A program made the position numbers and the translations under genes. Source: an uncultured Gemmatimonadales bacterium (GTDB lineage: Bacteria > Gemmatimonadota > Gemmatimonadetes > Gemmatimonadales > GWC2-71-9). From it: a DNA stretch of 64,000 nt. Below are positions 3,744-22,479 of this stretch, in pieces. Numbering within the stretch: the first letter of the stretch is position 1; every line of letters begins with the position of its first letter. Under the pieces are notes generated by a model. It did no database searches and was not told the origin of the DNA. It worked only from the letters and a program-made list of their open reading frames with translations. Location: NCBI GenBank assembly GCA_963730185.1, contig CAVSQW010000008.1:320001-384000 (forward strand), in the 5' to 3' direction.

Positions 3744-4709
3744 CTACCGCGCCGGCGGCGGGGTGGGCCGAGCCCCGCCCTCCGGGGTCGCGATCCGGCG
3801 GGTGTCCGGTTCCGCGCTCGCCGCCGGCTGTCCGAGCATTGTCGACCCGCCCACCAGGCCCATCAGCGACGGCGCGTTCAGGGAATCCGCCAACCCCGAG
3901 GGGACCACCATCAGCGAGCCGCGCTTGACGATGCTCTCGTAGAGCATGTTCATGGCCCGGAGGGTCATCGCCTCGGGATGGTCGCGGTAGGCGGCGGCCG
4001 CCTCGACGAACTTGTGGGCGATCTCCGTCTCGGCGGTGCCCAGGATGATCCGGGCCTGGCGCTCCCGCTCGGCCTGTGCCTGGCGGGACATCGCGTCCTC
4101 GAGTGCGGCGGGGATGATCACGTCGCGGATCTCGACCGACTGCACGTCGATCCCCCAGTTCGCCATCTTGTTTTCGAGCGCCACCCGGAGCCCGTGGCCC
4201 AGCTCCACCCGGGACTGGATCAGCTCGGCCAGGTCGTGCTTGCCGATGGCGTCCCGGAGGGCGGTCTGGGCCGAGAGGATCACGGCCTCGTCGTAGTCCT
4301 GGACTTCGAGGGCGGCCCGTTCCGCGTCGCGGACGATCCAGAACGCGATCGCATCGACGTTGACCGGGACGGTGTCCCGGGTCAGGCAGGACTCGGCCCC
4401 GAACGCCGCGGTCCGGATCCGGGTGTCGACGTGATACGAGACCCGGTCGAGGATCGGGAAGACGGCGAAGTAGCCGGGGCCTCGGAGCCCCCGATAGCGG
4501 CCCAGCCGGAGCAGGACGGCCCGCTCCCACTGGTCGGTGTACTTGATCGAGGCCATCAGGAAGAGCCCGACGGCGAGCCCGCCCGCAGCCACGATCGGTG
4601 CGGGCAGGCCGAGCAAGTAGAGCCCGCCCGCGACCCCGGCGCCCCCGATCAGCCCCGCCGCGATCGCGGCAAAGGAGTATCGGGTGTCGGTCGGCGTGTG
4701 TTTGGTCAT
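3744..4709 (-). CDS. SPFH/band 7 (stomatin/slipin-like) protein
   Basis: N-terminal TM segments, ERAVLLRLGR, LTRDTVPVNVDA, AQTALRDAIG and MSRQAQAERERQAR coiled coil. Confidence 0.9.
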   Translation of the reverse strand: MTKHTPTDTRYSFAAIAAGLIGGAGVAGGLYLLGLPAPIVAAGGLAVGLFLMASIKYTDQWERAVLLRLGRYRGLRGPGYFAVFPILDRVSYHVDTRIRTAAFGAESCLTRDTVPVNVDAIAFWIVRDAERAALEVQDYDEAVILSAQTALRDAIGKHDLAELIQSRVELGHGLRVALENKMANWGIDVQSVEIRDVIIPAALEDAMSRQAQAERERQARIILGTAETEIAHKFVEAAAAYRDHPEAMTLRAMNMLYESIVKRGSLMVVPSGLADSLNAPSLMGLVGGSTMLGQPAASAEPDTRRIATPEGGARPTPPPAR

Positions 4710-6041: not shown

Positions 6042-6048
6042 GGTCGCC

Positions 6049-7026
6049 TCAGTCGGAGAAGTACCAGAACCGCGGTTCCGTGCCGAGATCTTCCTTCAAT
6101 CGGAAGATCTTCTTGTTCGCCAGCACCCAACGAATCTCCGAATCGGGGTCGAGCAGGTTGCCGAACACCCGGGCCCCGGTGGGGCAGGCTTCGGCGCACG
6201 CCGGGAGCCGCCCTTGCCGGGTGCGGTGGATGCAGAAGGTGCATTTCTCCACCACGCCCATCTTCCGGGCCCGGTTGCCGAGGTAGTGCTGATTGGTGTT
6301 CACCTCGTTCACGGGCACCTTGGGCTCGGCCCAGTTGAAGCGCCGGGCCCAATAGGGGCAGGCCGCCATGCAGTACCGGCACCCGATGCACCAGTCGTAG
6401 TCGATCACCACGATGCCGTCCGGCTCCTGCCAGGTGGCCCCCACCGGGCAGACCCGGGTGCAGGGCGGATCGGCGCATTGGAAGCACTGGGTTCCGAGAT
6501 AGAAGTGCCCTTCGGCGGGGACCTCGTGCTGGAAGGTCGCGTCGGCGTGATCGAGGTTCACCTCGCCCTCGGACATCTCGAAGATCCGGATGTACATGGT
6601 GTCGGCGTCGCGATCGAGGTTGTTCTCGTTGATGCAGGCCTCGACGCAGTTCCGGAACCCCTGGCACTTCGAGATGTTGAAGGCGTAGCCGAAGAGCACG
6701 CCGGGTTGAGCTTCGGTCGACTGGATTCGGACCTCGAGCCCCTCCCGCAGCTTGGCCAAGCGCTCCAGCCGGGCGATGGTGTCGGTCCGCTCGCCCTCGG
6801 TCATGAACCGGTAGTTGCCCTTGATGTACTCCTGCCAGGCCAGCCGCTTGATCTCCCGCTCTTCGGGTGGGCCGGCGGCCAGGGGCCGGCAGGCGTTGAG
6901 GGCCTGGGCCCCGGCGGCGAGCCCGCCCGCCAGCAGGGACAAAGCCCGGCGCCGGTCGACCGGCTTCTCGAGCAGGGTGCTCGGCTCGGGGGGCGTGCCG
7001 CCCCGATCGGCTCGGTCGGTGCTCAT
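6049..7026 (-). CDS. NrfC/DsrO-like 4Fe-4S dicluster protein with Tat-like signal
   Basis: DRRRALSLLAGG twin-arginine leader. Cys clusters CQGFRNCVEAC, CFQCADPPCTRVCP, CIGCRYCMAACP and CTFC...PACAEACP. Confidence 0.85.
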   Translation of the reverse strand: MSTDRADRGGTPPEPSTLLEKPVDRRRALSLLAGGLAAGAQALNACRPLAAGPPEEREIKRLAWQEYIKGNYRFMTEGERTDTIARLERLAKLREGLEVRIQSTEAQPGVLFGYAFNISKCQGFRNCVEACINENNLDRDADTMYIRIFEMSEGEVNLDHADATFQHEVPAEGHFYLGTQCFQCADPPCTRVCPVGATWQEPDGIVVIDYDWCIGCRYCMAACPYWARRFNWAEPKVPVNEVNTNQHYLGNRARKMGVVEKCTFCIHRTRQGRLPACAEACPTGARVFGNLLDPDSEIRWVLANKKIFRLKEDLGTEPRFWYFSD

Positions 7027-7736
7027 GGCTCGGGCCTTTGGCGTGGCTCCAGCTCCGGCGCTCGGAAGGGAATCCGAGGCTCGACGGCCGGCGAATGGGG
7101 GTTGTGGCAGTCACTGCAGCCCATCACCACCCGCCGGCCCTGCCAGCCGTCGAGCCGCTTGCCGTGGGCACCGTGGGCCCAGGCCCGAACCTGCGCGAAG
7201 TGGCACTGGGCGCAGAGGCGGTAGGCGTGGTCCAGCGGCGGCCGCTCGCCGTTGAGCAGAGCCAACCGCTCGACGTTCTCGCGGGAGTGGCAGGTGGAGC
7301 ACACCGCACCGGTCGCCTTGGGGTGGACCGGCTGGATGTTCTGGTGGGCGTCGGGTACCCGCTTGGCGGCCATGGCCAATCGAGTGCCGGCGTGGCACGA
7401 GCTACAGGGGTACTGGGTCAAGGCCGGCGATTGCCGGAGTGTGATCGGGAGGGTGATGGTGCCGAACCGCCGGGCGTGTCCCGCCCGGGCCTCGGCGCTC
7501 CGGAGCGCGACCTCGAACGGACGCCCGACGTAGGTCGGCCCGAGGTTCACGGGCTCGGAGGCCACCGTGTGGAGGGCCCCCGGCTCCCGGGTGGCGTAGC
7601 GGCCGGTATCGACGGCCATCGTGTCGGGCCCGAGGGCCGGCTCGGCCGGGACCTCGTTCGGGGTCCGGCCGCTCCGAGAGCAGCCAACGGTCAGGAGGGC
7701 CAGTCCGGTCCAGGCGGCCCGGTGAAGCATCGTCAT
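7023..7736 (-). CDS. Tetraheme cytochrome c lipoprotein
   Basis: ATG overlaps the upstream stop (ATGA); lipobox LTVGC; CSSCH, CSTCH, CAQCH, CSDCH. Confidence 0.85.
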   Translation of the reverse strand: MTMLHRAAWTGLALLTVGCSRSGRTPNEVPAEPALGPDTMAVDTGRYATREPGALHTVASEPVNLGPTYVGRPFEVALRSAEARAGHARRFGTITLPITLRQSPALTQYPCSSCHAGTRLAMAAKRVPDAHQNIQPVHPKATGAVCSTCHSRENVERLALLNGERPPLDHAYRLCAQCHFAQVRAWAHGAHGKRLDGWQGRRVVMGCSDCHNPHSPAVEPRIPFRAPELEPRQRPEP

Positions 7737-8542
7737 CGGGTGGCCTCGACCCGGTCGTCGGTGGTGGCCGGCCGGGCGAATGCCGGCGGATCGGCACTGA
7801 TCGCCACGTGACAGTCCCGGCAGGCCGCCCGGTCGGGATGGGTCGTCCGGATCTCCTGCACCGCGGCCGGCCCGGCGTGACAGGCGAGACAGTTGCCCCG
7901 GATCTGGAGGTCGTGCGGAATCCACGGCGGGTTCTCTCCCGGGGTGATCGGTTGGAGCGCCGGCCAGACCGTCGTGTTCCACTCGGACGGCGGGTTGGCG
8001 CGAGGATTATTGGGGTCGTGGCACTGCTTGCAGATGGTGTTGGGGTCGATGCTCGGGAGCGTGACGCCGGTGATGCCGTCGACGCCGACGTGGCATTGCA
8101 GGCACGGGCCCATCTGGGGGTGCGGCGTCACCGGCACGTAGGCCCCGAACCGGGGGGAGTAGCCGCCGCGCTCGTGACAGGTGGTGCAGGCGCCGCTTCG
8201 AAACTCTTCGCCGGTCAGACCGTGGGGAATCTGGGGCGGCGCCCCGGGGTAGGCGCGGCGGGTCCGGTAGATGTGAAGCGTGCGCGGCTTGGCGGGCCGG
8301 CGGGCGACGTCAAACTTCCAGATCGCGAGGGTCTTGGGGCCGGTGCGAAAGACGTCGGCCTCACTGGTGATCGGGTGCTCGGGCGGGGTGAGGAGGGCCA
8401 CCGCCGTGTCAGGCTCGCTCGGGGGCCGGGCCGCGAGGGCCCGCTGCGCGAAGATCACCCCGGCGGCCGCGGCGGTTGCGGCGGATCCGAGCATCGCCAG
8501 GCCGAAGAGCACGCCGCCGGTGGTCCAGCCCCGGACGCTCAC
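7733..8542 (-). CDS. NapB-like periplasmic cytochrome c, 5-heme form
   Basis: GTGA overlap with the napA-like stop; hydrophobic leader; RAYPGAPPQIPH motif; CTTCH, CLQCH, CKQCH, CLACH, CRDCH. Confidence 0.8.
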   Translation of the reverse strand: MSVRGWTTGGVLFGLAMLGSAATAAAAGVIFAQRALAARPPSEPDTAVALLTPPEHPITSEADVFRTGPKTLAIWKFDVARRPAKPRTLHIYRTRRAYPGAPPQIPHGLTGEEFRSGACTTCHERGGYSPRFGAYVPVTPHPQMGPCLQCHVGVDGITGVTLPSIDPNTICKQCHDPNNPRANPPSEWNTTVWPALQPITPGENPPWIPHDLQIRGNCLACHAGPAAVQEIRTTHPDRAACRDCHVAISADPPAFARPATTDDRVEATR

Positions 8543-10872
8543 CGGTTGGCCCCGGCGCCGGCCCGCTCCAGGCGGACGGCGCACTTCCGGTCGTCCGGTT
8601 GGCCGGACCAGGGATCGTGCGCCCGCCCGGTCAGGCGGTTGATCGGCTTGCCCTCGTCGAAGGTCGGGACGAAGACCTGTCCCCGGGGCGGCTGCGAGCG
8701 ATAGTCGATCCGGGCTTCGAGCTCGAGGGCGCCGCGGCGGCTCACCAGCCGGACCAGGTCGCCCCGCTGGATCTTGTGGGTGGCCGCGTCGGCCGGGTTG
8801 ATCTCGACGTAGGCGTGGGGCAGGGCCCGGTGCAGGGTCGCGATCCGCTGGGTCATCGCCCCGCCGCCCCAGTGCTCCAACACGCCGCCCGTCACCAGCC
8901 AGAGCGGGTAGGCCCGGTCGGGCGCCTCGGCCGCCGGCCGGTCCGGCCGGAGCCAGACCCAGGCCCGGTGGTCGGGATGGCCGTAGAAGTCGAAATCGCC
9001 GCGGGCCCGGTCGGCGGCGGGGTCATGGGCGGTGTGGTACCGCCACTTGGTCTCGTGACCGTCGCGGTAGGGCCAGTAGACTCCCGGCCGGCGACGGAGC
9101 TCGGCGAGCGGCGGCAGGGGACTGGGCCCGTCGGCGTGGAAGCGCTGGTACTCCTCCCAGATCTGATCGGCCAGGTGGTCGCGGTCCCAGGGAAAGAGCG
9201 ACGCCAGGCCGAGCCGCCGCCCCACCTGGATCATCAGTTCGGCGTCGCTGGTCGCGTCGCCGGGCGGATTGGTCAGCTTGGCGAAGTGCTGGACCCGGCG
9301 TTCGGGGTTGGCATAGATGCCCTCCCGTTCGATCCAGATGGCGGCCGGCAGGACCACGTCAGCCAGGTCCGTCGTCGGGGTGGGGTACGCTTCGCTGACC
9401 ACGATGAACCGGTCCGGTTGCCGGGCGGCGCGGCGGTACCGGTCCAGGTCCGGGAGGCTCAACATCGGGTTGGTGGCCTGAATCCAGAGCACCCGAAGGT
9501 CGCCCCGGTCGAGGGCGTCGAACAGACCCACCGCGGTGCCCCCCGGACGGGGGTCGATCCGGTCGGCCGGCACGCCCCAGATCCGGGCGGCCCGCTCGCG
9601 ATCCTCGGGGCGAGTGACCAGGCCCCGCGGGAGGGTATGGGTCAGCGTTCCGGCGTCGTGTGGGGCGGCCCCGCCGTTCGGCTGGCCGGTGGTGGCGAAG
9701 GCCGCGTTGCCGGGCGTGCCCATCTTGCCGGCCAGCAGGTGGATGTTGTAGAGCGCGTTGTTGGTCCAGGTGCCGCGGACGTCCTGATGGACGTTGGCGC
9801 CCCAGATCGACATCACCTTCCGGGCCGGATCGCCGTAGAGCGACGCGACCCACCGGATCGTCTCGGCCGGCATCCCGGTCAGCCGTTGGGCCCGCTCGGC
9901 GGAGTAGGTCTCGAGCCCGGCCAGGAACTCGTCCCGGCTGGCGTCGGCCGGTCGCTCGGCGACCAGGCCGCCGTCCGGGGGCTCTGGCGCGGCCTCGCTC
10001 GCCGTCTTCTTGAACGCGACGTATCGGTTCACGAAGTCCCAATCCACCCACTCGCTGGCGACCAATTCGTGGCAGACGGCCTGGGCGATCTCCAAGGCGC
10101 CGTGAGGCAGGAAGAGCGCGGCCCGGTCGGCGGCGTAGCTGGTGCGGGTCGTTCGGGTGGCGAGGTCGATGATTCGGACCGCCGGATTGTCGCGGCGGCG
10201 GGCCAGAATCCGGGAAAAGAGGACCGGATCCGTCTCGGCCAGGTTGGTGTCCCAGAGAACGATGGTGTCGGCGTGATCGATGTCGTCGTAGCAGCCGACC
10301 GCTCCGTCGAGCCCGAAGGTGCTGTCCAGTCCGGCCATCGCGCCGGCGCCGTAGAGCCGGGTGCTGGTCTCGAGATTGTTCGTGCCGAGGCCGCCTTTGA
10401 CCAGCTTGGAGGCGACGTAGGCGTCGAGGATCGTCCACTGGGCCGATCCGTACAGGCCGACGCTGTCCTTGCCGTGCTGGTCGATCGATTCCCGGATCTT
10501 CCGGGCCACGAGGTCCAGCGCCTCGCCGAGAGGAACCGGAACCAGGGCGCCGTCCCTCCTGACCAGGGCCCGGGTGATGCGATCCTCGCCCCGGAGCGCC
10601 TGGACCGAGAGATAGCCGCGGACGCAGGCCAGGCCGCCGGCGACCGGCGAGTCGAGATCGCCCTTGACGGCCGACGCGCGACCGTTGGTGAGGCCGACGA
10701 GGAGGCCACAGCCGACCCCGCAGAGCCGGCAGGGCGCCTTGTGCCACACCGTGCCGGCCAGCGCCCGCCCCTCGGCCGGGGCCATGCCCAACCCGGGAAT
10801 GCCGACCGCGCCGACCGCCGCGGACAGGGCGACGACCTCTTTGACGAACCCGCGCCGGTCGAGGGCTCTCAT
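8539..10872 (-). CDS. NapA-like (DMSO reductase family) molybdopterin oxidoreductase with atypical active site
   Basis: Tat DRRGFVK; WHKAPCRLCGVGC...ACVRG Fe-S motif; DAYVASKLVKGGLGTNN; NIHLLAGK...PGN...TGQP; VLEHW; C-terminal KCAVRL. The Cys ligand position is Tyr. Confidence 0.85.
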   Translation of the reverse strand: MRALDRRGFVKEVVALSAAVGAVGIPGLGMAPAEGRALAGTVWHKAPCRLCGVGCGLLVGLTNGRASAVKGDLDSPVAGGLACVRGYLSVQALRGEDRITRALVRRDGALVPVPLGEALDLVARKIRESIDQHGKDSVGLYGSAQWTILDAYVASKLVKGGLGTNNLETSTRLYGAGAMAGLDSTFGLDGAVGCYDDIDHADTIVLWDTNLAETDPVLFSRILARRRDNPAVRIIDLATRTTRTSYAADRAALFLPHGALEIAQAVCHELVASEWVDWDFVNRYVAFKKTASEAAPEPPDGGLVAERPADASRDEFLAGLETYSAERAQRLTGMPAETIRWVASLYGDPARKVMSIWGANVHQDVRGTWTNNALYNIHLLAGKMGTPGNAAFATTGQPNGGAAPHDAGTLTHTLPRGLVTRPEDRERAARIWGVPADRIDPRPGGTAVGLFDALDRGDLRVLWIQATNPMLSLPDLDRYRRAARQPDRFIVVSEAYPTPTTDLADVVLPAAIWIEREGIYANPERRVQHFAKLTNPPGDATSDAELMIQVGRRLGLASLFPWDRDHLADQIWEEYQRFHADGPSPLPPLAELRRRPGVYWPYRDGHETKWRYHTAHDPAADRARGDFDFYGHPDHRAWVWLRPDRPAAEAPDRAYPLWLVTGGVLEHWGGGAMTQRIATLHRALPHAYVEINPADAATHKIQRGDLVRLVSRRGALELEARIDYRSQPPRGQVFVPTFDEGKPINRLTGRAHDPWSGQPDDRKCAVRLERAGAGANR

Positions 10873-10910
10873 GGGAGTCCGGGAACAGGAACACCTGGGC
10901 ACTGAGGCAT
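10869..10910 (-). other. 13-aa upstream mini-ORF (MPQCPGVPVPGLP) coupled to the napA-like start
   Basis: AGGAGGT SD 7 nt before ATG 10910; its TGA (10871-10869) overlaps the napA-like ATG (10872-10870). Confidence 0.4.
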
Positions 10911-11087: not shown

Positions 11088-11897
11088 TCAGCCAGTCGGC
11101 TTGACGGCGGCGCGAGCCTCGGCCAGGAAGCGGTCGACGGCCGTCTGGTGGTCGCGGTACTCCGGCCGGCCAGCCGCGATCTCCTTGTCGTAGGCGGCGT
11201 TGAAGCCCTGGTAGGCCCTGGCGAGCGCGGCGTCGTTCCGGGCGAATTGGGCCAGCGCGCCCTCGATCATGAAGCCGAAGAGGTGGGTGGGATCGTTGGC
11301 GAGGATGGTGTCGGCCAGCGCCCGAGCGCCGGCCAGGTCGCCGGTGTGGAGTCGGAGCATGGCCGAGTGGTAGCGGGCGTCGGCGTCCGGGGCGGGGAGG
11401 TCCGCGTACGCCTGCATGGCCATGGGGAGGAACTGGGAGGCTTGGGCGGTGTCGCCCGACTCACTCGCTTGCATGACCCGGTTGTAGAGGCGGTCGAAGC
11501 GCTCCCGTGGGCTCATGTTGCTGATGTCGGGCGGTGCCCCGTTCCCGCCGCCGCCCAGAGCGGGGGTGGCGGCCGGGACGGGGGTGACCGCAGCCCGGGT
11601 CTGGCTCTCCTTCCGGAACAGGGCCACCAAGATGACGAGCAGGGCAGCGCCTCCGATGAGGTACGGGAAGACGGTCCCCATTGACAGGGATGGCTTGGTT
11701 GCCTGGACCGGTGCCGGCCCAGCCGGGCCGACCGGCTGGCCACAATTGGCGCAGAACTTGACCCCCGGGGTCAACGGCTGGTCGCACGAGCGGCAGCGGG
11801 CGCCGGGAAGCGGGGCGCCGCAGCTGGCGCAGAATCGGCCGGTGCTTTGGGCGCCACACTGCGAACAGGTGCTGGGGGCTGTCGGATTGGGTGACAT
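11088..11897 (-). CDS. Zinc-ribbon membrane protein with C-terminal TPR-like helical domain
   Basis: Four CxxC motifs (CSQC, CASC, CRSC, CANC), one TM helix and a helical C-terminus. Confidence 0.7.
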   Translation of the reverse strand: MSPNPTAPSTCSQCGAQSTGRFCASCGAPLPGARCRSCDQPLTPGVKFCANCGQPVGPAGPAPVQATKPSLSMGTVFPYLIGGAALLVILVALFRKESQTRAAVTPVPAATPALGGGGNGAPPDISNMSPRERFDRLYNRVMQASESGDTAQASQFLPMAMQAYADLPAPDADARYHSAMLRLHTGDLAGARALADTILANDPTHLFGFMIEGALAQFARNDAALARAYQGFNAAYDKEIAAGRPEYRDHQTAVDRFLAEARAAVKPTG

Positions 11898-12017: not shown

Positions 12018-12134
12018 CGTGCCGGATGCCTTGTAGGCGGACGGGGAGGATAGCTACTGTTGACCCGTGGTTGGATTACTTGGGTAGAAATGCGGTATGC
12101 GTTCAACCTGGTCTGGTCAACGACGGAGACGGTT

Positions 12135-13730
12135 GTGCGATTCAGAATCCCCTTTTCGAGTGGTGTCCTGGGCGTCATTTGCGCCATGACCCTGGCGGGA
12201 TGTACCTCGGAGAAGATCGTCTACCGCGATCGGGAGCCGTTCAACGTGCCGCCCGACGCGGCCTTGGGCTTCCTGGGGTACTACGACGTCTCCACCAAGC
12301 AGACCACCTGCGGCAACTGCCACAGCGAGAAGCAGGCGAGCTGGTCGACGACCAAGCACGCCTCCGCGTGGGAGGATCTGCAGGCTTCGGGGCACGCGAC
12401 GGCTTCCTGTAACGGATGCCATACGGTGTCCGAGAATGGGAACTCCGTGGGCGCGCCGGCGGGCTACAGCGTGGTCCCCGACTCGGTCTATCAAGACGTG
12501 CAGTGCGAGAACTGTCACGGACCGGGCCTGACCCACGTTCAGAATCCGACCAACACCAACCAGCCGTTGGCATCGATCTCCGCCGATACCGGCCAGGTCA
12601 ACGGCTGCGGCGGCTGCCATTCGGGCGTTCACGAGCCGTTCGTGGATCAGTGGAAGGAATCGGCCCACGGGTCGGGGCCAGGCTTCGACCACGCCGCCAC
12701 CAACGCCACCTGTGCGCCTTGCCACGAGGGCAAGGCGGCGCTGAGCCAGAAGTTTGGGGTCACGACCAACTACAAAGAGGCGAGCTCGACCGATCCGGTC
12801 CGGATCGTCTGCGCCGTCTGCCACAACCCGCACGGATCGCCCTACGACCATCAGCTTCGGGCGTCCGTCTCGACGCCGACCCGGGACAACCTCTGCATCA
12901 TGTGCCACTCCCGGCAGGGCACTCCGCCGTGGAGCACGGCCGCGGCCGGCGGCGGCACGACCCGAGGCGCTCACGGGGCCCAGGGGCTTCTGGTGCTGGG
13001 TCTCGACGTCGGGTGGATTCCGCCCAACTTCGCCTACGACCCGTCGTCGATCGTGAGCACGCACGGAACGGGCGCCAATCCGAAGCTCTGCGCCACCTGT
13101 CACGTCGCCCAGACCACGGTGACTGATCAAGCGACCGGTGCCTTCGTCTTCCAGAGCGTGGGGCACACCTTCACGGCGACGCCGTGCCTGGATGCCCAGG
13201 GCCTCCCGACCGCCACGACCGAGTGCGACGTTACCCAGCGGGACTTCACGGCCTGTGCCGCCTCCGGGTGCCACTCGAGCGATCAGACGGCTCGGGCGGC
13301 GTACATCTCCTTCGAGAGCCGGTTGGACAACCTGGTCGACCAGATCTGGAAGGACACCAACGGGAACAGCGTGATCGACGCGACCGACGGTGGCTTGATC
13401 CCGCAGATGGTGGCCCGAAACTCGGCCGCCGACCAGGCCGCGCTCGACTTCAGCAGCACCGTGACGACGACGGCCAAGGGCGCGCTCTTCAACGCGGCCC
13501 TGGCGGCCACCGACAACCGGCCCCAGTTCCTGGCCGGCACGGTCTACAACTTCACCTTCTCGACCCACATGGCCTCGGGTGGCGGTGCCCACAACCCGTT
13601 CCTGCTCGAAGCCCTGCTGACCGCGTCGATCGAGGCCCTCAAGAACGACTACGGGCTCAGCGCGCCGCCCAACCTGGACCTCAAGGTCCACGCGGTGGCG
13701 CCGAAGGGCCTGCGGATGGCGGCCCGGTAG
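12135..13730 (+). CDS. Multiheme c-type cytochrome lipoprotein (8 CxxCH + 1 CxxxxCH)
   Basis: GTG with GGAG SD; lipobox LAGC; CGNCH, CNGCH, CENCH, CGGCH, CAPCH, CAVCH, CIMCH, CATCH, CAASGCH; helical C-terminus with GAHNP. Confidence 0.9.
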   Translation: MRFRIPFSSGVLGVICAMTLAGCTSEKIVYRDREPFNVPPDAALGFLGYYDVSTKQTTCGNCHSEKQASWSTTKHASAWEDLQASGHATASCNGCHTVSENGNSVGAPAGYSVVPDSVYQDVQCENCHGPGLTHVQNPTNTNQPLASISADTGQVNGCGGCHSGVHEPFVDQWKESAHGSGPGFDHAATNATCAPCHEGKAALSQKFGVTTNYKEASSTDPVRIVCAVCHNPHGSPYDHQLRASVSTPTRDNLCIMCHSRQGTPPWSTAAAGGGTTRGAHGAQGLLVLGLDVGWIPPNFAYDPSSIVSTHGTGANPKLCATCHVAQTTVTDQATGAFVFQSVGHTFTATPCLDAQGLPTATTECDVTQRDFTACAASGCHSSDQTARAAYISFESRLDNLVDQIWKDTNGNSVIDATDGGLIPQMVARNSAADQAALDFSSTVTTTAKGALFNAALAATDNRPQFLAGTVYNFTFSTHMASGGGAHNPFLLEALLTASIEALKNDYGLSAPPNLDLKVHAVAPKGLRMAAR

Positions 13731-13789: not shown

Positions 13790-15754
13790 GTGACTCTTCT
13801 CGGCTTCCCCCAGCTGACCGACACGGTGCGGGCGGCGTCGGCGGTTGCCGATACCACCCCCCCGACTCTGGTCGAGTCCCCCCTCCCCGGGGGCGTGTCC
13901 GAGGTCGTTCGCTACTTCTTCAATCTGCCGCAGTGGTTCCAGATTGCCGGCTTCTTTGCCGGCCTGATCGTCGCGGCGCTGATCTTGATCTATCTCTGGA
14001 AGCGCCGGGCGCCGATCGTCTACTGGATCAAGACCCGGGAGCGCGGCCTCCAGCTGGGGCTTGCCGGCGGCCTGTTCGGCCTCATCCTGCTCGCCAGCGG
14101 CGCCGGGATGGTCAGCTGGAACTACATGCAGCACGACAACGGGTTCTGCACCGGATGCCACGTCATGAACGTGCCGTTCGGGAAGTTCGAGGTCCGGGCC
14201 GGGAAGCACGACTCGCTGCAGTGCCACAACTGCCATCAGCAGTCGATCTACGCCAGCATGCGGCAGCTCTACCTCTGGGTGGCGGAGCGTCCGGAGGAGA
14301 TCGGGAGCCACGCCAAGGTGCCGAACCGGGTCTGCGCCGGGTGTCACGTCACCGGCGAGGGCAAGGAGAAGTGGAAGAACATCGCCGCGACGGCGGGCCA
14401 CCGGGTGCACCTCGAGTCCGACTCGACGGCGCTCAAGAACGTCCAGTGCGTGACCTGCCACGGCTACGAGGTGCACCTCTTCGTGCCGGTCGACCGGACC
14501 TGTATGCAGTCGGGCTGTCACGAGAACTTGAAGATCGGTCTGGGTAAGATGGCGGGGCAGACCGACCTCCACTGCGTCACCTGTCACCAGTTCACCGCGG
14601 ACGTGCCTCGGCTGGCGACCTACGACTCGGCCGCGAAGACCCTGGTCCCCACCAACAAGCAGTGTCTCAGCTGCCACGAGATGCAGAAGGTCCTGACCGA
14701 GTTCGATCCGGCCAAGGATCCGCACAACGGGGCCTGCGGCACGTGCCACAACCCGCACACCCAGACCAAGGCGGCCGACGCGGCGAAGCGCTGCGCGACC
14801 TCGGGCTGCCACGACAACTGGGGCGAGGTGCCGTTCCACGTGGGGGCGACCCATCGGCAGGTGGTGCAGGACTGCCTGCTCTGCCACAATCCGCACCAGG
14901 CCCGGCTCGACGCCAGCGACTGCGAGGGCTGCCACACCAAGGTGCGGGCCCGGGGACGGTTCAGACCGCCGGTACCGTTCGACACCTTGCGGGCCCTCAA
15001 GGGCGGGCGGGGGTCGCCGCCCGGCGCCTCAGCGGGTGGCCCCGTCACGGGCTTCATCGGGGGGGGCGCCTGGTGGGAGCCCCCCCTTTCGTTGTCCGAT
15101 CCGCCCCCGGTCCGGGCCGTGCCCGCACCGGCAGCCGATTCGTTCCCGCACCAACGTCACAAGAGCCTCGCCTGCCTGACCTGTCACAAGCCAACCGCCA
15201 CCCACGGACGCCTGAACTTCGAGACTCCCCGCGGGTGTCAGATCTGCCACCACGTGGTCCAGCGTGACAAGCCGTGTACCGTCTGCCACCAGCAGTCCGA
15301 GCTGGACCCGCCGCACGTCGAGACGGTGACGATCACCGTGCCCGACCGGGCGCCGAGGGCCCGGCCGGTGACATTCACGCACCGAGGCCCGCACGAGAAG
15401 CTCGCCTGCCGTGACTGCCACAAAACCGAGGTCACCAACCTGCCGGCGGCCGACGTCGTCACCTGCCAGGCGTGCCACGACCGACACCACGGCAACCCGA
15501 CGACCTGCTCCACCTGTCACACCGCCACCGATCTCCAAGCGGTCCATGCCCGACCGATCGAGGCCCATCGGGCCTGTGACGAATGCCACACGGCCCGGAT
15601 CGTCGCCGAGCTGGTTCCCACCCGGAACCTCTGCGTGACCTGTCACCGGACCAAGGCGGATCACTATCCCGCCAAACAGTGCACCGTGTGTCACTTCCTC
15701 TCGGATCCGGAGAGCTATCGGGTCCACCTGCGCAAAGCGAGCAAGGCCGGGTGA
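13790..15754 (+). CDS. Membrane-anchored multiheme cytochrome with NapC/NirT-like N-terminus (18 CxxCH + 2 CxxxxCH)
   Basis: Two hydrophobic helices, then YMQHDNGFCTGCHVM (NapC-type FCxxCHxM); heme motifs counted by hand. Confidence 0.88.
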   Translation: MTLLGFPQLTDTVRAASAVADTTPPTLVESPLPGGVSEVVRYFFNLPQWFQIAGFFAGLIVAALILIYLWKRRAPIVYWIKTRERGLQLGLAGGLFGLILLASGAGMVSWNYMQHDNGFCTGCHVMNVPFGKFEVRAGKHDSLQCHNCHQQSIYASMRQLYLWVAERPEEIGSHAKVPNRVCAGCHVTGEGKEKWKNIAATAGHRVHLESDSTALKNVQCVTCHGYEVHLFVPVDRTCMQSGCHENLKIGLGKMAGQTDLHCVTCHQFTADVPRLATYDSAAKTLVPTNKQCLSCHEMQKVLTEFDPAKDPHNGACGTCHNPHTQTKAADAAKRCATSGCHDNWGEVPFHVGATHRQVVQDCLLCHNPHQARLDASDCEGCHTKVRARGRFRPPVPFDTLRALKGGRGSPPGASAGGPVTGFIGGGAWWEPPLSLSDPPPVRAVPAPAADSFPHQRHKSLACLTCHKPTATHGRLNFETPRGCQICHHVVQRDKPCTVCHQQSELDPPHVETVTITVPDRAPRARPVTFTHRGPHEKLACRDCHKTEVTNLPAADVVTCQACHDRHHGNPTTCSTCHTATDLQAVHARPIEAHRACDECHTARIVAELVPTRNLCVTCHRTKADHYPAKQCTVCHFLSDPESYRVHLRKASKAG

Positions 15755-17247
15755 TCGGGCGCGCGAGCGGACTCGTCCTTCTGGTGGCCGGTGTCGCCGC
15801 CCTGCCGGTCGCGGCCCAAGGGTACCGCCTCCGGCTGGACAGCCGCTACCAGAGCGTGAGCTTTCGCGGGGTCCGGGCCGACAGCATTCTGGCGGTGGAC
15901 GCCGTGACCCGGGCGGGGCAGGGATACTTCACGACCGACGGCTTCGCGGTCTCGTGCGCTCAGGGAGCGGTCTACTGCTACTTCCTCCGGCCTGGCGACA
16001 AGCTCCGCGGGAACCCGGTGAGCGGCACCGGCGACCTCACGCTCTGGGGCTTCGGGGTCACGGGTCTCACGTTCCATGCCTCGGCCCGGTTCGCGCGGGA
16101 CCTGAGCAGCCAGGTGGACTACCCCCTGACCGAGCCGGCCGTGACCCTGCTCGAGGGGTATCTCGACTACAACAGCCGCCACCTGGTGGGTCGAGCCGGG
16201 CGCCAGATCGTCACCGGCCGGCTCGGATACCAGGGCTTCGACGGCGCGCTCGGGACGTTGCGCGACCCGGCCCGAGGCATCGAGGTGACGGGCTACGCGG
16301 GTTGGGGGCTGGCTCGGGGTACCGCGCTCCCGGTCACCAGCCCGGCCCTCAATCCGTTGGACGACTTCCAACCGCGGAACCGGCAGCTGCTCTTCGGCGC
16401 CCAGCTGGGCGTCCGGCATGCCTGGGTGGATTTCCGCGCCGACTATCGGCGGGAGATCGACCCGGTGCCGGACTACCTGGTCTCGGAACGGGCCTCCGCG
16501 AGCCTCTCTCTTTCGCCGCTTCCCGGGTGGCGGTTGACCGGCGGCGGCGACTATGACTTCGCCAACGGCTGGTGGGGCAGCGCCGATGCGACGCTCGGCT
16601 ATGCCGGCAAGCGCTTCTATGCGACCGCGACCGCCAGGCGCTACCGCCCGTTCTTCGATCTCTGGACCATCTGGGGGGCGTTCTCGCCGGTGCCCTATCA
16701 TGCCGTGTCCGGCGCCGCCGCCGTCCAGCCGGTCGAGCACCTCTGGGTTCGGGCTAGCGGAGAGCGGTACTGGTTCGAGGCTTCGGAGGCCTCGACGGCG
16801 CTCGTCTCGGTCGAGGATCGCGGGTGGCGGGGATCGGTGGGTGCGTCGTTGACGCTCGCCGACCGCTGGACGTTCGACGCCGGGCTCCGGGGAGAGTTCG
16901 GCCCGGGCGCCGCCTCCCGAACGGTCGAGGGCTCGGTCACCTGGCAGGCGCGGGACGGCGTGAGCCTGTCCACCCAGGTCGCGACTTTGGCCCGGCCGCT
17001 GGAGTTCCGCTACGACCAGAGCAACCTCGACTGGTATTCGGTCGGCGCGGACGTCCGGCTCAACGGCCAGTGGCGCTGGGTGTCCGACCTGGCTTGGGTG
17101 TCCGAGAGACGCAATCGTCCCGACGCGGCCGCCATCGACTGGGGGCAGTTCCGGGCCAGCACCCGGATCGTGCTCACCCTCGGATCGAGCGCCGATCGCC
17201 TCGCGTTGCCGCCGGGCCGCCCGCGGCCGAAGGGAGCGACGCCATGA
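15751..17247 (+). CDS. Predicted outer-membrane beta-barrel (porin-like) protein
   Basis: GTGA overlap; signal peptide ending PVAA-Q; alternating amphipathic, aromatic-rich strands (LEGYLDY, RAGRQ); no heme motifs; lies between cytochrome genes. Confidence 0.7.
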   Translation: MIGRASGLVLLVAGVAALPVAAQGYRLRLDSRYQSVSFRGVRADSILAVDAVTRAGQGYFTTDGFAVSCAQGAVYCYFLRPGDKLRGNPVSGTGDLTLWGFGVTGLTFHASARFARDLSSQVDYPLTEPAVTLLEGYLDYNSRHLVGRAGRQIVTGRLGYQGFDGALGTLRDPARGIEVTGYAGWGLARGTALPVTSPALNPLDDFQPRNRQLLFGAQLGVRHAWVDFRADYRREIDPVPDYLVSERASASLSLSPLPGWRLTGGGDYDFANGWWGSADATLGYAGKRFYATATARRYRPFFDLWTIWGAFSPVPYHAVSGAAAVQPVEHLWVRASGERYWFEASEASTALVSVEDRGWRGSVGASLTLADRWTFDAGLRGEFGPGAASRTVEGSVTWQARDGVSLSTQVATLARPLEFRYDQSNLDWYSVGADVRLNGQWRWVSDLAWVSERRNRPDAAAIDWGQFRASTRIVLTLGSSADRLALPPGRPRPKGATP

Positions 17248-18725
17248 GGGCGCTTCGGATCGGTCTCGCGCTCGGTCTGGGGTGGGCCTTGCTCGGCGGA
17301 GCGGCCAGGGCCGATGCTCAGCGTCCGGACACCGCGCGGTGGGATCACGCCCGCCACGCCAAGGTGTTCCCCAACTGTCTGATCTGTCACGCGGGCGCCG
17401 CCGAGGCAGGGGCGCCGATGTTCCCGGCTCCGGTTGCCTGCCAGGCCTGCCACGATGGGACCGTCGAGCCGCGGATCAGCTGGGAGCCCCGGGTTGGGCC
17501 CCGGCCCAGCAACCTGACCTTCGATCACGCCCGCCACCGGGCCGCGTTCGCCCGCGGCGCCAGTCGCCATCCGGGCCGCGAAGCCCCCCAGTGCGTCACC
17601 TGCCACATCCCGGAGGGGGCCGGTTGGATGCGGGTCCAGCGCGCCGTGGTGCCGCGCTGTCTCGATTGCCACGAGGTGCGGACCGAGCACTTCGCGGCTC
17701 CGGACACGGCCTGCGCCACCTGCCACCGACCGCTGGCCGACGCGCCCAACCTGCCCGACGCGAAGATCGCGGCTCTCAAGGCGCCGCCGTCGCACCAGGC
17801 CCCGGGCTTCGTGGGGAGCGGCCCGACCAGTCACGGGCAACTCGCCCGGTCGCTGGACCGCTCGCACGGGTACGAGGTGGCGCGGAGCTGTGCCACCTGT
17901 CACGCCCGGGATTTCTGTCTCGACTGTCACGTCAACGCGCCAGAGACCGAGGCGATCCAGGATCTGAAGCCCGATCCGCGTTCGCTCCTGATCCCGGCCA
18001 AGCTCGAAGCACCGGCTTCTCATCATCGGGCCGACTTCGCCCGGAAGCACGGCTCGTTGGCGGGCAAACAGGGTGAGCGGTGCGTCGTCTGTCACACCCG
18101 CGAGAGCTGTGCGACCTGCCACGCCGGCACCCTCCCGGCGGCCGCCGCCTCGCTCGCCATGGCCGGTCCTGGCCGGGCACCCGGGGCCAAGACGGTCCGC
18201 CGGCGGCCGCGCTCGCACGGCGCCGGCTGGGACGAGCACCATGCCTCGCTGGCCGACGCCGCCCCGACGACCTGCCTGAGCTGCCACGTCCGGTCCACCT
18301 GCCTCGAATGTCACCGACCGGCCGCCGGCCAGCGGAACGGGTTCCACCCCGTGGGCTTCCTGGCTTCTCACCCGGCCGCCGCGTACAACCGCCAATCCAA
18401 CTGCGCCGACTGCCACAATCAGGCCCAGTTCTGCGCGACCTGTCATGCTCAGGCCGGGCTCAGCGCTCGGGTGGGGCTCGGGACGGCCGAGCGCTACCAC
18501 GACGCCAAGGGCGTCTTCATTCTCGGCCACGGTCAGGCCGCCAGGCAGAACCTCGAGACCTGCGTCAGCTGCCACGTGGAGCGCGATTGCCTCAAGTGCC
18601 ACGCGGCCCTGGGCGGGCGGCGGTTCAACCCGCACGGCCCGGGCTTCGACCCGGAGCGGCTCCGCAAGAAGAACCCGGAGATGTGCATCGCCTGCCACGG
18701 CCTGGCGATACCGGGTAGTGAGTAG
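17244..18725 (+). CDS. Periplasmic/exported 16-heme cytochrome c
   Basis: ATGA overlap; signal peptide ending ADA-Q; 16 CxxCH, mostly in repeated H...H...CxxCH-x4-5-CxxCH modules. Confidence 0.9.
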   Translation: MRALRIGLALGLGWALLGGAARADAQRPDTARWDHARHAKVFPNCLICHAGAAEAGAPMFPAPVACQACHDGTVEPRISWEPRVGPRPSNLTFDHARHRAAFARGASRHPGREAPQCVTCHIPEGAGWMRVQRAVVPRCLDCHEVRTEHFAAPDTACATCHRPLADAPNLPDAKIAALKAPPSHQAPGFVGSGPTSHGQLARSLDRSHGYEVARSCATCHARDFCLDCHVNAPETEAIQDLKPDPRSLLIPAKLEAPASHHRADFARKHGSLAGKQGERCVVCHTRESCATCHAGTLPAAAASLAMAGPGRAPGAKTVRRRPRSHGAGWDEHHASLADAAPTTCLSCHVRSTCLECHRPAAGQRNGFHPVGFLASHPAAAYNRQSNCADCHNQAQFCATCHAQAGLSARVGLGTAERYHDAKGVFILGHGQAARQNLETCVSCHVERDCLKCHAALGGRRFNPHGPGFDPERLRKKNPEMCIACHGLAIPGSE

Positions 18726-18932: not shown

Positions 18933-19394
18933 ATGTGCGAGATCGCGGTCAACGGCATCGTCCGGGAACTGCCGGCGACGGTGTGGCTTTCCCTCCTCGA
19001 CTTCCTTCGTAACCACCTGGGGCTCACCGGCGCCAAGCCGGGGTGCCGCGAGGGGGAGTGCGGCGCCTGCACCGTGCTCGTCGACGGGCGTCCGGTGCTC
19101 TCCTGCCTGACCCTCGCCCGATCGGCGGAGGGCGCCAGCGTGACGACCATCGAAGGGCTGGCCGACGGCGAGCGGCTTCACCCCGTCCAGCGCGCCTTCA
19201 TCGAGCACGACGCGTTGCAGTGCGGCTACTGCACTCCGGGACAGATCCTCTCGGCGGTGGCCTGCATCGCGGCCGGTCACGCGGATTCCGACGAGCGCGT
19301 CCGCGAGTGGATGAGCGGCAACCTCTGCCGCTGCGCCGCGTATCCCCAGATCGTGGCCGCGGTCCGGGCCGCCGGCGCGGAGCTCGGGTCGTGA
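18933..19394 (+). CDS. Xanthine dehydrogenase family 2x[2Fe-2S] subunit (YagT/PaoA-like)
   Basis: GAKPGCREGECGACTV and QCGYCTPGQ...GNLCRCAAY; no Tat leader. Confidence 0.9.
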   Translation: MCEIAVNGIVRELPATVWLSLLDFLRNHLGLTGAKPGCREGECGACTVLVDGRPVLSCLTLARSAEGASVTTIEGLADGERLHPVQRAFIEHDALQCGYCTPGQILSAVACIAAGHADSDERVREWMSGNLCRCAAYPQIVAAVRAAGAELGS

Positions 19395-20371
19395 CCGATC
19401 TGGCCTACCTTCGTCCCACTTCCGTCGCGGAGGCGGTGGCGCTCACCGCCGTCGACGCGACGGCTCGGTTCCTGGCCGGAGGGACGGAGCTGATTCCGGG
19501 GATGCGCCAGGGCTTGGCCCGTCCGGCGACCCTGGTCGACATCACCCGCTTGCCGCTCCGGGGCGTCGAGCGGCGCGACGGCGGGCTGCGGATCGGGGCC
19601 CTGACCCGGCTGGTCGACGTCGCCGCGGACCGCGAGGTCCGGCGGACCGCCCCGGTCTTGGCGCGCGCCATCGAGCTGGCCGCGAGCCCTCAGCTCCGCC
19701 AGATGGCCACCCTGGGTGGCAACCTGCTTCAGGAAACCCGGTGTCCCGTTTTTCGAGCTGGGCCGGGCCTACCCTGCAACCGGCGGGTTCCGGGGAGCGG
19801 CTGCCCGGTCCGAGCCGGCAACCAACGGTCCGCGGCGATTCTCGGAGCGACCGAGGCGTGTGTCGCCACCCATCCGTCCGATCCCGCCGTGGCGCTGGTT
19901 GCCCTCGATGCCCGGGTCACGGTCCTGAGCCCCGCCGGCGAGCGGGAGACGACCGTCGAAGCCCTCCTCGCCCGGCCGCCGGAGCAGGGCGTTCGGCTGG
20001 CGCCGGGAGAGCTGATCACCGCCGTCGACCTGCCCCTGACCGAGCCGGGCTGGGCGTCCGACTACGTCAAGGTTCGGGATCGCGCGTCCTTCGATTTTGC
20101 CCTCGTCTCCGCCGCCGCCTCGCTCCGAATGGCCGGCGGGCGGATCAGAGCGGTCCGGCTGGTGCTCGGCGGCGTGGCGCCCTGGCCCTGGCGATGCCGG
20201 GTGGCCGAGGGGCGGCTCGCCGAGAGCCGCCTGGACCGGGGCGCGCTGCGAGCGGCGTTCGACGCCGAGCTGGCCGCCGCGGCTCCCCTGCCGGGCAACG
20301 AGTTCAAGGTCCAGCTGGCCGCCGAGGCTGGGGTCCGGGCGTTGGTGAGCGCGGCGGGAGGGGCCGGGTGA
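19391..20371 (+). CDS. Xanthine dehydrogenase family FAD subunit with [4Fe-4S] insert (YagS/PaoB-like)
   Basis: LAGGTEL, ASPQLRQMATLGGNL, RC...CNRR..GSGC...CVATHPSD and KVRDRASFDFA. Confidence 0.9.
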   Translation: MTDLAYLRPTSVAEAVALTAVDATARFLAGGTELIPGMRQGLARPATLVDITRLPLRGVERRDGGLRIGALTRLVDVAADREVRRTAPVLARAIELAASPQLRQMATLGGNLLQETRCPVFRAGPGLPCNRRVPGSGCPVRAGNQRSAAILGATEACVATHPSDPAVALVALDARVTVLSPAGERETTVEALLARPPEQGVRLAPGELITAVDLPLTEPGWASDYVKVRDRASFDFALVSAAASLRMAGGRIRAVRLVLGGVAPWPWRCRVAEGRLAESRLDRGALRAAFDAELAAAAPLPGNEFKVQLAAEAGVRALVSAAGGAG

Positions 20372-22479
20372 GCGCGATCGGCGTCCCGACCCGGCGGGTG
20401 GACGGGCCGGACAAGGTCACCGGGAGGGCCCGGTTCGTGGGCGACCTGGAATTCGACGGTCTGCTCGACGGCGGCTTCGTCCCGAGCCCGGTGCCCGCCG
20501 GGCGGATCTTGGCGATCGACGTCGGCGCCGCGCGGCGGGCCCCGGGCGTGGTGGCCGTGTACACTCACGAGAACGTCCCTCGCCTGCCCCCGCTGGAGCA
20601 CTGGGCCCTGGGCCAGACTCGGATGCCGCTCCAGTCCGACGAGGTGAAATACGAGGGAGAGCCGGTGGCCCTGGTGCTGGCCGAGTCGGGCATGGCGGCC
20701 CACCTGGCCGCCCGGCTGGTGCGGGTCGAGATCGAGCCCGCGGCCGCTCGGCTGGACCTCGAGGCGTTGGCGGCCGAGGCCGTGGAGATCAAGGACTGGG
20801 CGCCCAATACCTCGAGCGTGGGCGACGTGGACCGGGGGCTCCGGGAGGCGGCGGTCCAGGTCGACCAGACCTACCGGACCGCCGACCGCCACCACTCGGC
20901 GCTGGAGACGTCGGTGGCGGTCGCCCGGTGGACCGGTGACCAGCTCGAGCTCTGGACCTCCACCCAGTGGGTGGGCGGGGTGCGATCGGCCTTGGCCGAG
21001 GCCCTCGGTGTGCCGGCCGAGCGGATCAGGGTTCGGGGCGCGCAGGTGGGGGGTGGCTTCGGCGCCAAGGGCTCGACCTGGCCGCACGAGGTGTACGCCG
21101 CCGTCGCGGCCCGGGCACTGGGGCGTCCGGTGCGGATCGCCCTGACCCGGGCCGAAACGTTCACGGCCCATGGCTATCAGCCCGGGACGATCCAGCGGGT
21201 GACACTCGGCGCGGACCGGGATGGCCATCTGACCGCAATCCGCCACGAGAGCATCGCCTCGGCGGCGATGGCCGACGACTACGTGGAGCACGGGAGCCTG
21301 GGCTCTCGCTCGATGTACGCCTGTCCCAACATCGCCACCCGGGACCGGGCGGTCCGGCTTCACAAGCCGCAGCCCACCTTCATGCGGGCGCCGCACGAAG
21401 GGCCGGGCATGGTGGCGCTCGAGGTGGCGATGGACGAGCTGGCGGGCGCGCTCGAGCTCGACCCGGTGGAGCTTCGGCTCCGGAACTACGCCGACGCCGA
21501 TCCGACCAGCGGCAAGCCGTTCTCCAGCAAGGCCCTCCGGGAATGCTACCGGCTCGGCGCCGAACGCTTCGGATGGAGGGAACGGAACCCGCCGCCTCGG
21601 AGCATGCGACAGGGCGGAGAGCTGGTGGGCTGGGGGATGGCCAGCGCCCTGATGAGCACCTTCCGCTTCGGCTCCAGCGCGCGGGTGACGATCCAGCGCG
21701 ACGGCACCGCCTTGGTGGAGAGCGCCACCCACGACATCGGGAGCGGTGTCCCCACCATGCTGGCCCAGGTCGCGGCCGACGCGCTGGGCATCGACTCCGC
21801 CCGGGTCGAAGTGGCGTTCGGCGACACCGCGCTCCCGGAGGCCGGCGGCACCTTCGGGTCGGCCACGACGATCGGGGTCGGATCCGCGGTCCGGGTCGCG
21901 TCCGAACGGCTTCGCAAGAAGCTGGAGGAGCTGGCCGGCGAGCCCGATCTCCGCCCGGACGAGTATGGCGAGGTCTTGGCGCTCCGGCGGCTGGACCAGG
22001 TGGCGGAGGTCGCGAGCTGGGCACCGACCCAGGAGGAGAACGCCTGGGCGATGAACGCCTACGGCGCGGTCTTCGTCGAGGTCCGTCTCGACGAGGCCTT
22101 CCTGGTGCCGCGGGTGACCCGGTGCCTGGGCGTCTACAGCGTGGGGCGGATCATCAATCCGCTGGGTGCCCGGAGTCAGGTCGTCGGCGGCCTCGTCTGG
22201 GGTGTCGGCCAGGCCCTGCTGGAGGACTCGGCCTTCGACGTCCGGCTGGGACGGTTCCCGAAGAGCTTCGGCGGCTACCGCCTGCCGGTCTCCGCCGACG
22301 TGCCGTCGGTCGAGGCGCTGTTCGTCGCCGAGGACGACCGCCGGGCCAGCGCCTTGGGCGCCCGGGGCGTGGGCGAGATCGGGACGATCGGCATTGGCGC
22401 CGCCGTGGCCAACGCGGTCCACCACGCGACCGGGGTGCGGGTCCGCCGGCTCCCGATCCGGACCGAGGACCTTCGTTAG
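20368..22479 (+). CDS. Xanthine dehydrogenase family molybdopterin subunit (YagR/PaoC-like)
   Basis: RVDGPDKVTG, VGGGFGAKG, MRAP, AGGTFGS and GARGVGEIG. Confidence 0.9.
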   Translation: MSAIGVPTRRVDGPDKVTGRARFVGDLEFDGLLDGGFVPSPVPAGRILAIDVGAARRAPGVVAVYTHENVPRLPPLEHWALGQTRMPLQSDEVKYEGEPVALVLAESGMAAHLAARLVRVEIEPAAARLDLEALAAEAVEIKDWAPNTSSVGDVDRGLREAAVQVDQTYRTADRHHSALETSVAVARWTGDQLELWTSTQWVGGVRSALAEALGVPAERIRVRGAQVGGGFGAKGSTWPHEVYAAVAARALGRPVRIALTRAETFTAHGYQPGTIQRVTLGADRDGHLTAIRHESIASAAMADDYVEHGSLGSRSMYACPNIATRDRAVRLHKPQPTFMRAPHEGPGMVALEVAMDELAGALELDPVELRLRNYADADPTSGKPFSSKALRECYRLGAERFGWRERNPPPRSMRQGGELVGWGMASALMSTFRFGSSARVTIQRDGTALVESATHDIGSGVPTMLAQVAADALGIDSARVEVAFGDTALPEAGGTFGSATTIGVGSAVRVASERLRKKLEELAGEPDLRPDEYGEVLALRRLDQVAEVASWAPTQEENAWAMNAYGAVFVEVRLDEAFLVPRVTRCLGVYSVGRIINPLGARSQVVGGLVWGVGQALLEDSAFDVRLGRFPKSFGGYRLPVSADVPSVEALFVAEDDRRASALGARGVGEIGTIGIGAAVANAVHHATGVRVRRLPIRTEDLR

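Follow-up and report, generated by a model that had tools for sequence, protein, structure and literature searches.

The window analysed here is a 64,000-nucleotide stretch from an uncultured Gemmatimonadales bacterium (assembly GCA_963730185.1, contig CAVSQW010000008.1, positions 320,001 to 384,000), in which the open reading frame (ORF) at 13790..15754 encodes a 20-heme inner-membrane c-type cytochrome of 654 amino acids; positions are those of the window, and features lie on its + strand unless marked otherwise. The protein is real, conserved and uncharacterised. The homologue search gave 1419 matches among 8000 scored candidates, the named ones being Gemmatimonadales, and a literature search with most subscription journals outside its reach found no description of the Gemmatimonadota 20-heme family. 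On balance, and with modest confidence, the protein is considered to be the quinone-facing inner-membrane end of a porin-cytochrome conduit, equipped with a tethered shuttle arm; the order of electron transfer in this reading is deduced at every step.

All 40 cysteines of the protein are used by 18 CX2CH and two CX4CH motifs, the latter at residues 238 and 335, which gives the total of 20 hemes already counted correctly in the first-pass annotation. The division proposed there, of eleven canonical plus two atypical motifs followed by seven, was wrong. The first block contains hemes 1–11 (residues 120–382, nine canonical and two CX4CH motifs) and the second contains hemes 12–20 (residues 462–635, nine canonical), beginning 79 residues after the first; the corresponding distance between heme 11 and heme 12 is 61–95 residues across 120 homologues. 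The earlier description of a 16-heme extension is true as arithmetic (4 + 16) only. The GC content at third codon positions was 0.90 for this ORF. Conservation counts were taken from the 120 best homologues of the search and from the loci of relatives, and it should be noted that the search patterns used to collect the 80 loci described below themselves contained Met126 and His146. The best homologues contain 18 + 2 motifs in 116 cases, 19 + 1 in two and 17 + 2 in two, with a total of 20 in 118. Because the 18 + 2 count recurs in 116 of 120, the layout is not due to chance, and a frameshift or assembly chimera was rejected as the source of the ORF on the same count.

Two membrane helices precede the first heme motif, FCTGCHVM (residues 119–126), an arrangement that had been noticed at first pass and was confirmed. 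Helix 1 (13931..14002, residues ~48–71) was identified by hydropathy and by a model helix with a predicted local distance difference test score (pLDDT) above 90, and is missing from the distant orthologues of family f3. Helix 2 (14048..14119, residues ~87–110) aligns with the uncleaved anchor of NrfH, is supported by the model, and is by itself the usual single anchor of the f3 orthologues. The predicted model places the two helices at residues 48–71 and 85–115, mostly with pLDDT above 90. They are separated by a basic loop with a short helix (14003..14047, residues 72–86), predicted to be cytoplasmic from the Lys/Arg content of the homologues, which averages 6.5 over residues 71–88 with a minimum of 4 and falls to almost none past helix 2. 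The positive-inside rule places both the N-terminus and the heme domain in the periplasm. A cleavable N-terminal signal was rejected, as basic residues follow helix 1 and helix 2 begins ~87 residues into the protein; the anchoring N-terminus assumed at first pass was borne out by hydropathy, charge distribution, model helices and the NrfH-anchor alignment. The full model had a mean pLDDT of 58.7 and a predicted template modelling score of 0.37, too poor for the length of the heme chain to be taken from it, and its comparison using VIA-align returned generic helices only (best Z 4.6).

The two helices lead into a NapC/NrfH-like head (14120..14476, residues 111–229) containing hemes 1–4. When residues 45–237 were compared with solved structures the top match was NrfH from Desulfovibrio vulgaris, with residues 85–149 aligned on NrfH 12–71 at an E value of 5.5e-5, and the family profile repeated this match at 5.2e-6. 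On these alignments the anchor and hemes 1–2 are homologous to NrfH. The NrfH family model TIGR03153 scored 31.9 bits at residues 106–151, with a cut-off of 134.2. PF03264 matches were obtained in nine orthologue loci (41 genomes), with five distant ones alone passing (24.9–32.4 bits against 24.1), and were all confined to model positions ~6–79 of 174. The head of a sister family of 22-heme proteins was colinear with that of the 20-heme protein over all four hemes (95.6%, E 1.3e-8), while two unrelated multiheme proteins gave 28.1% and 2.7% and ten motif-preserving shuffles gave 3.3–85.6%. The evidence for homology of hemes 3–4 to the NapC-type core is thinner than that for hemes 1–2. His229, five residues past the heme-4 histidine as is His145 in NrfH, is by this analogy a probable heme ligand. 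In a tree of the heads (34 rows, 112 columns) the 20-heme family was separate from the NrfH, ImcH-like and sister heads on very long internal branches, from which no ancestry is claimed.

The putative quinol site is centred on heme 1 (14147..14167), whose CXXCHXM motif includes Met126, corresponding to NrfH Met49 (NrfH numbering taken from a printed alignment). The motif is invariant in 120/120 homologues, as are Met126, His140, His146, His174, His204, His207 and His229. A shortened helix lies over heme 1 (14237..14284, residues 150–165; model helix 153–165) and carries Gln159 at the distal position and no lysine. Residues 155–171 align without gaps with NrfH 85–101 (Ala, Arg, Tyr and Pro identical), so that Gln159 falls on Asp89, and MAFFT places it in the Gln column of ImcH-like proteins. 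Gln occupies position 159 in 99% of the homologues and Glu in 1%, and all seven distant f3 orthologues retain the Met, His146 and Gln159. Heme 1 is predicted to be ligated by Met126, with Gln159 at an open distal site. His140 is equivalent to NrfH His61, and His146 sits at the position of NrfH Asn67, a residue with a role in quinol binding for which the literature search gave no supporting paper. His146 may, as a hypothesis, handle protons in place of the lost lysine. Of the quinol-site residues looked for after the first pass, the Met of CXXCHXM and a distal Gln/Glu are kept and the lysine is lost. In the Gemmatimonadota NrfH genes (loci L039–L050), His is aligned with D. vulgaris Asp89 in 9/9 heads examined.

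The missing lysine has equivalents in the reported quinol sites of NrfH (Lys82), CymA (Lys91), NapC (Lys103) and ImcH (Lys173), and is described as needed by NrfH and CymA to turn over quinol (bioRxiv 2023.05.03.539133; 10.1101/2022.01.10.475773; PMC3340143); its replacement in Wolinella NrfH is reported to stop nitrite reduction (bioRxiv 2023.05.03.539133; also 10.1101/2022.01.10.475773). For ImcH, the accessible text of one report describes a heme 1 with predicted His/Gln ligation, the distal Gln being Gln179 in a model where Lys173 overlaps NrfH Lys82, and reduction of the protein by menadiol (bioRxiv 2023.05.03.539133).

Several results weigh against a quinol-oxidising head at the start of a conduit. 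The register of NrfH Lys82 reads Ser152 or Ile153 in the 20-heme protein, the quinol-binding lysine being absent, and in the 20 residues past heme 2 a lysine occurs in at most 3/120 homologues at any one offset. PF03264 was matched at E 0.01 neither by the 20-heme protein nor by any protein of the source genome, so that of the NapC/NirT identity proposed at first pass the alignment of the anchor and hemes 1–2 with NrfH stands and the family match does not. One of the ten shuffles of the head reached 85.6% against the real 95.6%, and the half containing hemes 3–4 (residues 150–250) alone gave 20.9%, not above background. Foldseek with the 20-heme model returned no match at E 0.001, NrfH ranking first at an E value of 1.2. 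The heme chain is interrupted in sequence by a heme-free linker, further modules that may oxidise quinol are encoded in the source genome (NrfC/NrfD-type genes adjacent to the cassette and an alternative complex III-like cluster on contig C8), and no Gemmatimonadota strain with tested extracellular electron transfer was found in the literature search.

Part of this evidence would be expected if the head were a degenerate NapC domain without quinol turnover and the protein a membrane-tethered wire, still serving the conduit and fed by a separate quinol dehydrogenase of NrfCD type, alternative complex III, ImcH or the sister 22-heme system. All 120 homologues have lost the lysine along with 7–9 residues of the helix that bears it, the spacing between hemes 2 and 3 being 32 in every one compared with 39 in the sister family, where a lysine is found at offset 12 after heme 2 in 120/120. 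The failure to match PF03264 points the same way, as does the occurrence of NapA-like, NrfC or NrfD genes within 6 kb in 8/80 loci and in the window itself. This linkage is however sporadic while the cassette is fixed, and Met126, His146, Gln159 and Trp163 are strongly constrained, as expected of an open site that still works and not of a heme that simply forms part of a wire, with Glu the only common replacement at 159. A head without turnover is regarded as rather unlikely, and the 20-heme protein is taken to work like an extended NapC/ImcH-type inner-membrane cytochrome, as judged from its sequence.

Comparison with characterised proteins places the 20-heme protein near several families and within none. 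It shares with NrfH (D. vulgaris, PDB 2J7A/2VR0) and the NapC/NirT/CymA tetrahemes of PF03264 an uncleaved anchor just before heme 1 and the CXXCHXM motif, and with NrfH the His61 equivalent and a helix over heme 1 with a non-His distal residue. It differs from NrfH in the absence of Lys82, a helix shorter by ~9 residues and the changes of Asp89 to Gln and Asn67 to His, and from NrfH and NapC in having an extra membrane helix, 16 more hemes, a score below the family cut-off and genetic linkage to a β-barrel, not to a periplasmic reductase. Assignment to the NapC/NirT family was rejected on the family score and the missing lysine. The protein resembles ImcH of Geobacter sulfurreducens, which is assigned a part in extracellular electron transfer at its quinone end, in its heme-extended NapC-like head and the Gln at the heme-1 distal position. 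ImcH is however described as having three membrane helices, seven hemes (6–10 in homologues), CX3CH at heme 1 in homologues and Lys173, and in the available portions of the reports it hands electrons to free PpcA and is not found beside mtrAB (PMC6295460; bioRxiv 2023.05.03.539133; PMC12307469). Assignment to ImcH was likewise rejected, the 20-heme protein having two helices, a CX2CH first heme, 20 hemes and no Lys173. A NapC head with a C-terminal heme extension is also reported for TorC/DorC, which contain five hemes (10.1101/2022.01.10.475773). The difference here is one extra heme in TorC/DorC compared with sixteen, and a soluble periplasmic reductase as partner. In TorC/DorC the C-terminal extension hands electrons onward. 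The first-pass statement that NapC-type proteins are tetrahemes only overlooked both TorC/DorC and ImcH.

The remainder of the first block (14501..14935, residues 238–382) contains hemes 5–11, including both CX4CH motifs, with conserved candidate distal histidines. Outside the heme motifs, block 1 has 13 conserved histidines for its 10 further hemes and block 2 has 10 for nine, which would be enough for bis-His ligation of all hemes besides heme 1. A heme-free linker follows (14936..15136, residues 383–449); its first ~22 residues are conserved and the rest is variable and rich in Pro, Gly and Ala, confirming the Gly/Pro linker recognised earlier. In the model the linker is disordered, with pLDDT below 50 over residues 406–485. 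A variable and disordered linker is more in keeping with a mobile module on a tether than with a rigid rod of 20 hemes.

The nine-heme arm beyond the linker (15137..15694, residues 450–635) consists of three cytochrome c7-like triheme units. It matched PF14522 with 44 bits (cut-off 24.8) and the structures of the c7/PpcA family and 3oue, and its three units were mutually similar at 92.6–97.2%, a comparison that had no shuffled control. The same arm is found in the 20-heme and sister 22-heme families (99.7%). The dodecaheme c7 polymer GSU1996 and PpcA–E are built from similar triheme units; GSU1996 is described as a soluble protein with 12 hemes in 12 nm, or ~1 nm per heme (PMC13591261), and differs from the arm, which is attached to a membrane-anchored head. 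On that figure the arm would reach ~9 nm and the whole protein at most ~20 nm, and the width of the periplasm is given as ~17 nm (PMC11492766). By this analogy it would be feasible for the 20-heme protein to span the periplasm, an idea that fits its conserved neighbours, a barrel, a 16-heme cytochrome and a lipoprotein, none of which figured in the first-pass annotation of the gene.

These neighbours form with the 20-heme gene a four-gene cassette. Upstream is the gene of a 9-heme lipoprotein (12060..13730; eight CX2CH and one CX4CH motif), the predicted outer-membrane or surface partner, whose lipobox Cys is encoded at 12201 and whose true start is probably downstream of 12060. The lipobox pattern was found in 52 of 57 scored segments of 9-heme ORFs, at least one of these ORFs being mis-picked. 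Downstream is a predicted 22-strand plugless outer-membrane β-barrel with a signal-peptide-like N-terminus (15751..17247), followed by a 16-heme cytochrome (17244..18725) with an N-terminus that by eye resembles a signal peptide, a candidate barrel-inserted or periplasmic partner. The barrel gene overlaps both the 20-heme stop and the 16-heme start by four bases. The barrel protein, of about 475 residues, gave no Pfam or NCBIfam match, and its Atlas matches were unnamed Gemmatimonadota clusters, the nearest named ones being outer-membrane barrels. Its model had a pLDDT of 84.6, and 22 strands were counted from the DSSP string; a strand-alternation count of 23, compared with a shuffled mean of 14 and maximum of 20, is weak evidence superseded by the model. 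Superposition using VIA-align gave Z 18.8 with the barrel part of FyuA (root mean square deviation (rmsd) 5.2, 369 aligned) and Z 16.9 with MtrB (rmsd 4.9, 360 aligned); the barrel parts of FimD and BtuB also matched, and there was no plug.

The cassette is strongly conserved. Among the 80 strongest of 202 loci, and counting those with enough flank, the rest being left out of the count for their short contigs, the barrel gene was next to the 20-heme gene in 70/70, the 16-heme gene was in place in 63/63 and the 9-heme gene was upstream in 68/70. In 18 stretches from relatives, which partly overlap the 80-locus set, all four genes were present in 14, a contig end cut two, the 9-heme match was missing in one and one belonged to the sister family. 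No further inner-membrane component was found in the cassette, and the source genome (82% complete) contained cytochrome c assembly genes and no small free triheme cytochrome among its eight ORFs with at least three CX2CH motifs. A lipoprotein, an exported multiheme cytochrome and a barrel are described as the standard porin-cytochrome set (PMC13591261), and occur together in one cluster in MtrCAB (6R2Q) and in Geobacter Om(abc)B/ExtABCD, MtrB matching the barrel fold as above. The cassette differs from these complexes in its barrel, which has 22 predicted strands in its ~475 residues and no family match, and in itself including an inner-membrane component.

In the proposed mechanism heme 1 would exchange electrons with (mena)quinol at the remodelled pocket, and electrons would run from there up the 11-heme block. 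The tethered nine-heme arm would serve as a PpcA-like shuttle that is part of the protein itself, handing electrons to the 16-heme cytochrome at the barrel, which would pass them to the 9-heme lipoprotein. Outward flow is a default guess. The anatomy is neutral as to direction and the site is unlike known quinol oxidases, so the cassette could instead oxidise an outside donor such as Fe(II), humics or a partner cell, with the head reducing quinone and the remodelled site serving the reverse reaction. CymA-type and CbcL/MtrH/MtoC proteins are reported from Fe(III) reducers as well as from Fe(II) oxidisers (PMC6295460). Nothing ties the loss of the lysine to reversal, however, and in the sources consulted ImcH-type Gln heads are reported only in reducers, making inward flow improbable. 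The best fold matches of the barrel are transporter barrels and the c7 polymer GSU1996 has been proposed as an electron reservoir (PMC13591261), from which the 20-heme protein might be pictured as a quinol-charged periplasmic capacitor, or as feeding a periplasmic enzyme, with the barrel exporting or importing a substrate. This is very improbable, as the barrel lacks a plug domain, its gene is overlapped by a heme gene at either end and the cassette has the composition reported as standard for porin-cytochrome systems.

The conduit reading with a quinone-facing 20-heme protein can be extended to a bolder form, held tentatively and thought doubtful as a whole, in which one polypeptide would oxidise quinol at a site of a new, lysine-free kind (Met126/Gln159/His146) and carry the electrons over the full width of the periplasm on its own c7 arm, to a 22-strand porin-cytochrome complex not described before. 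About a third of Gemmatimonadota would in that case possess a shuttle-free wire of four genes and 45 hemes that starts at the quinone pool and ends at the cell surface. In model systems the quinol dehydrogenase, periplasmic shuttle and outer-membrane conduit are separate, and the cassette would pack the three steps into four genes. It bears on the question of how electrons get through the periplasm when no diffusible carrier takes them, and is a compact unit to express and test; the lysine-free site, with the lysine-bearing sister family as a natural control, also allows a test of what a NapC-type quinol site needs. A survey of Desulfuromonadia is reported to have found no more than three inner-membrane cytochromes exceeding 10 hemes, and raises direct membrane-to-membrane wires as a possibility (PMC11492766). 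CbcL-type proteins, which use another quinol module, are described as reaching 23 hemes (PMC6295460). Porin-cytochrome clusters that include ImcH- or NapC-like genes, along with cytochromes of more than 20 hemes, are reported from cave metagenome-assembled genomes (PMC13264449), and these clusters may include the cassette.

The distribution of the 20-heme family was examined in 201 genomes drawn across Gemmatimonadota, in which kin are not independent. With block 1 as query at E 1e-30, matches were found in 68/201 genomes, 54/97 in the organism's own family and few elsewhere. Matches were also found in 28 of 41 genomes of relatives, those in genome G027 belonging to the sister family. By title, the 80 strongest of the 202 loci are Gemmatimonadota save for 'Bacterium HR33', one 'uncultured bacterium' and a single 'Vicinamibacterales' bin represented by two contigs. 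No longer fused forms (1146–3270 amino acids) were found at E 1e-10 among 1463 candidates, which is weak evidence. Two orthologues are split over two frames by a frameshift or assembly error (G078:C1:1303786-1304521 and G207:C18:39240-40238). The proteins of the sister family (P0121–P0240) are membrane-anchored, have 22 motifs in 107/120, and pass PF03264 in 120/120 of those listed; they are automatically named 'NapC/NirT family cytochrome c' and are uncharacterised. They share the c7-like arm and colinear head with the 20-heme family and differ in passing PF03264, keeping the lysine, and having one membrane helix and another middle block. In the source genome the sister family was not found beyond the shared arm. 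The sister gene of G027 (L034:6706-8721) is flanked by 9-, 14- and 11-heme genes.

Other genes surround the cassette. A NapA-like molybdoenzyme is encoded at 8539-10902 (-); it reaches 674 bits against NF010055, whose cut-off is 904. Where NapA has the motif ARHCMAS, this protein has TRLYGAG, without the cysteine that serves as the molybdenum ligand; two relatives (L129 and L131) also lack it, reading RLHAAS. An enzyme of this type without the cysteine may represent a new substrate class or be catalytically altered. The gene heads an operon extending over 4755-8584 (-), with 5-heme and 4-heme cytochromes, an NrfC/DsrO-like Fe-S protein and, in place of NapC, an NrfD/DsrP-like membrane protein that passes NF045798; an SPFH/band 7 gene (3744-4709, -) follows the NrfD-like gene. 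After the cassette lies a three-gene set of xanthine/aldehyde dehydrogenase type (18933-22479, +) with 2Fe-2S, flavin adenine dinucleotide and Mo subunits. Divergent from the cassette is a gene (11088-11897, -) for a protein with a double zinc ribbon, a membrane helix and tetratricopeptide repeats, found nearby in 17/80 loci and possibly an assembly or maturation factor for multiheme systems. The source genome has a second multiheme cluster at C12:364824-372241, in which a frame of 961 codons holds 37 CX2CH motifs and one of 675 codons holds 21, and two paralogues of the zinc ribbon protein are encoded on the same contig, one of them between the 37- and 21-heme genes.

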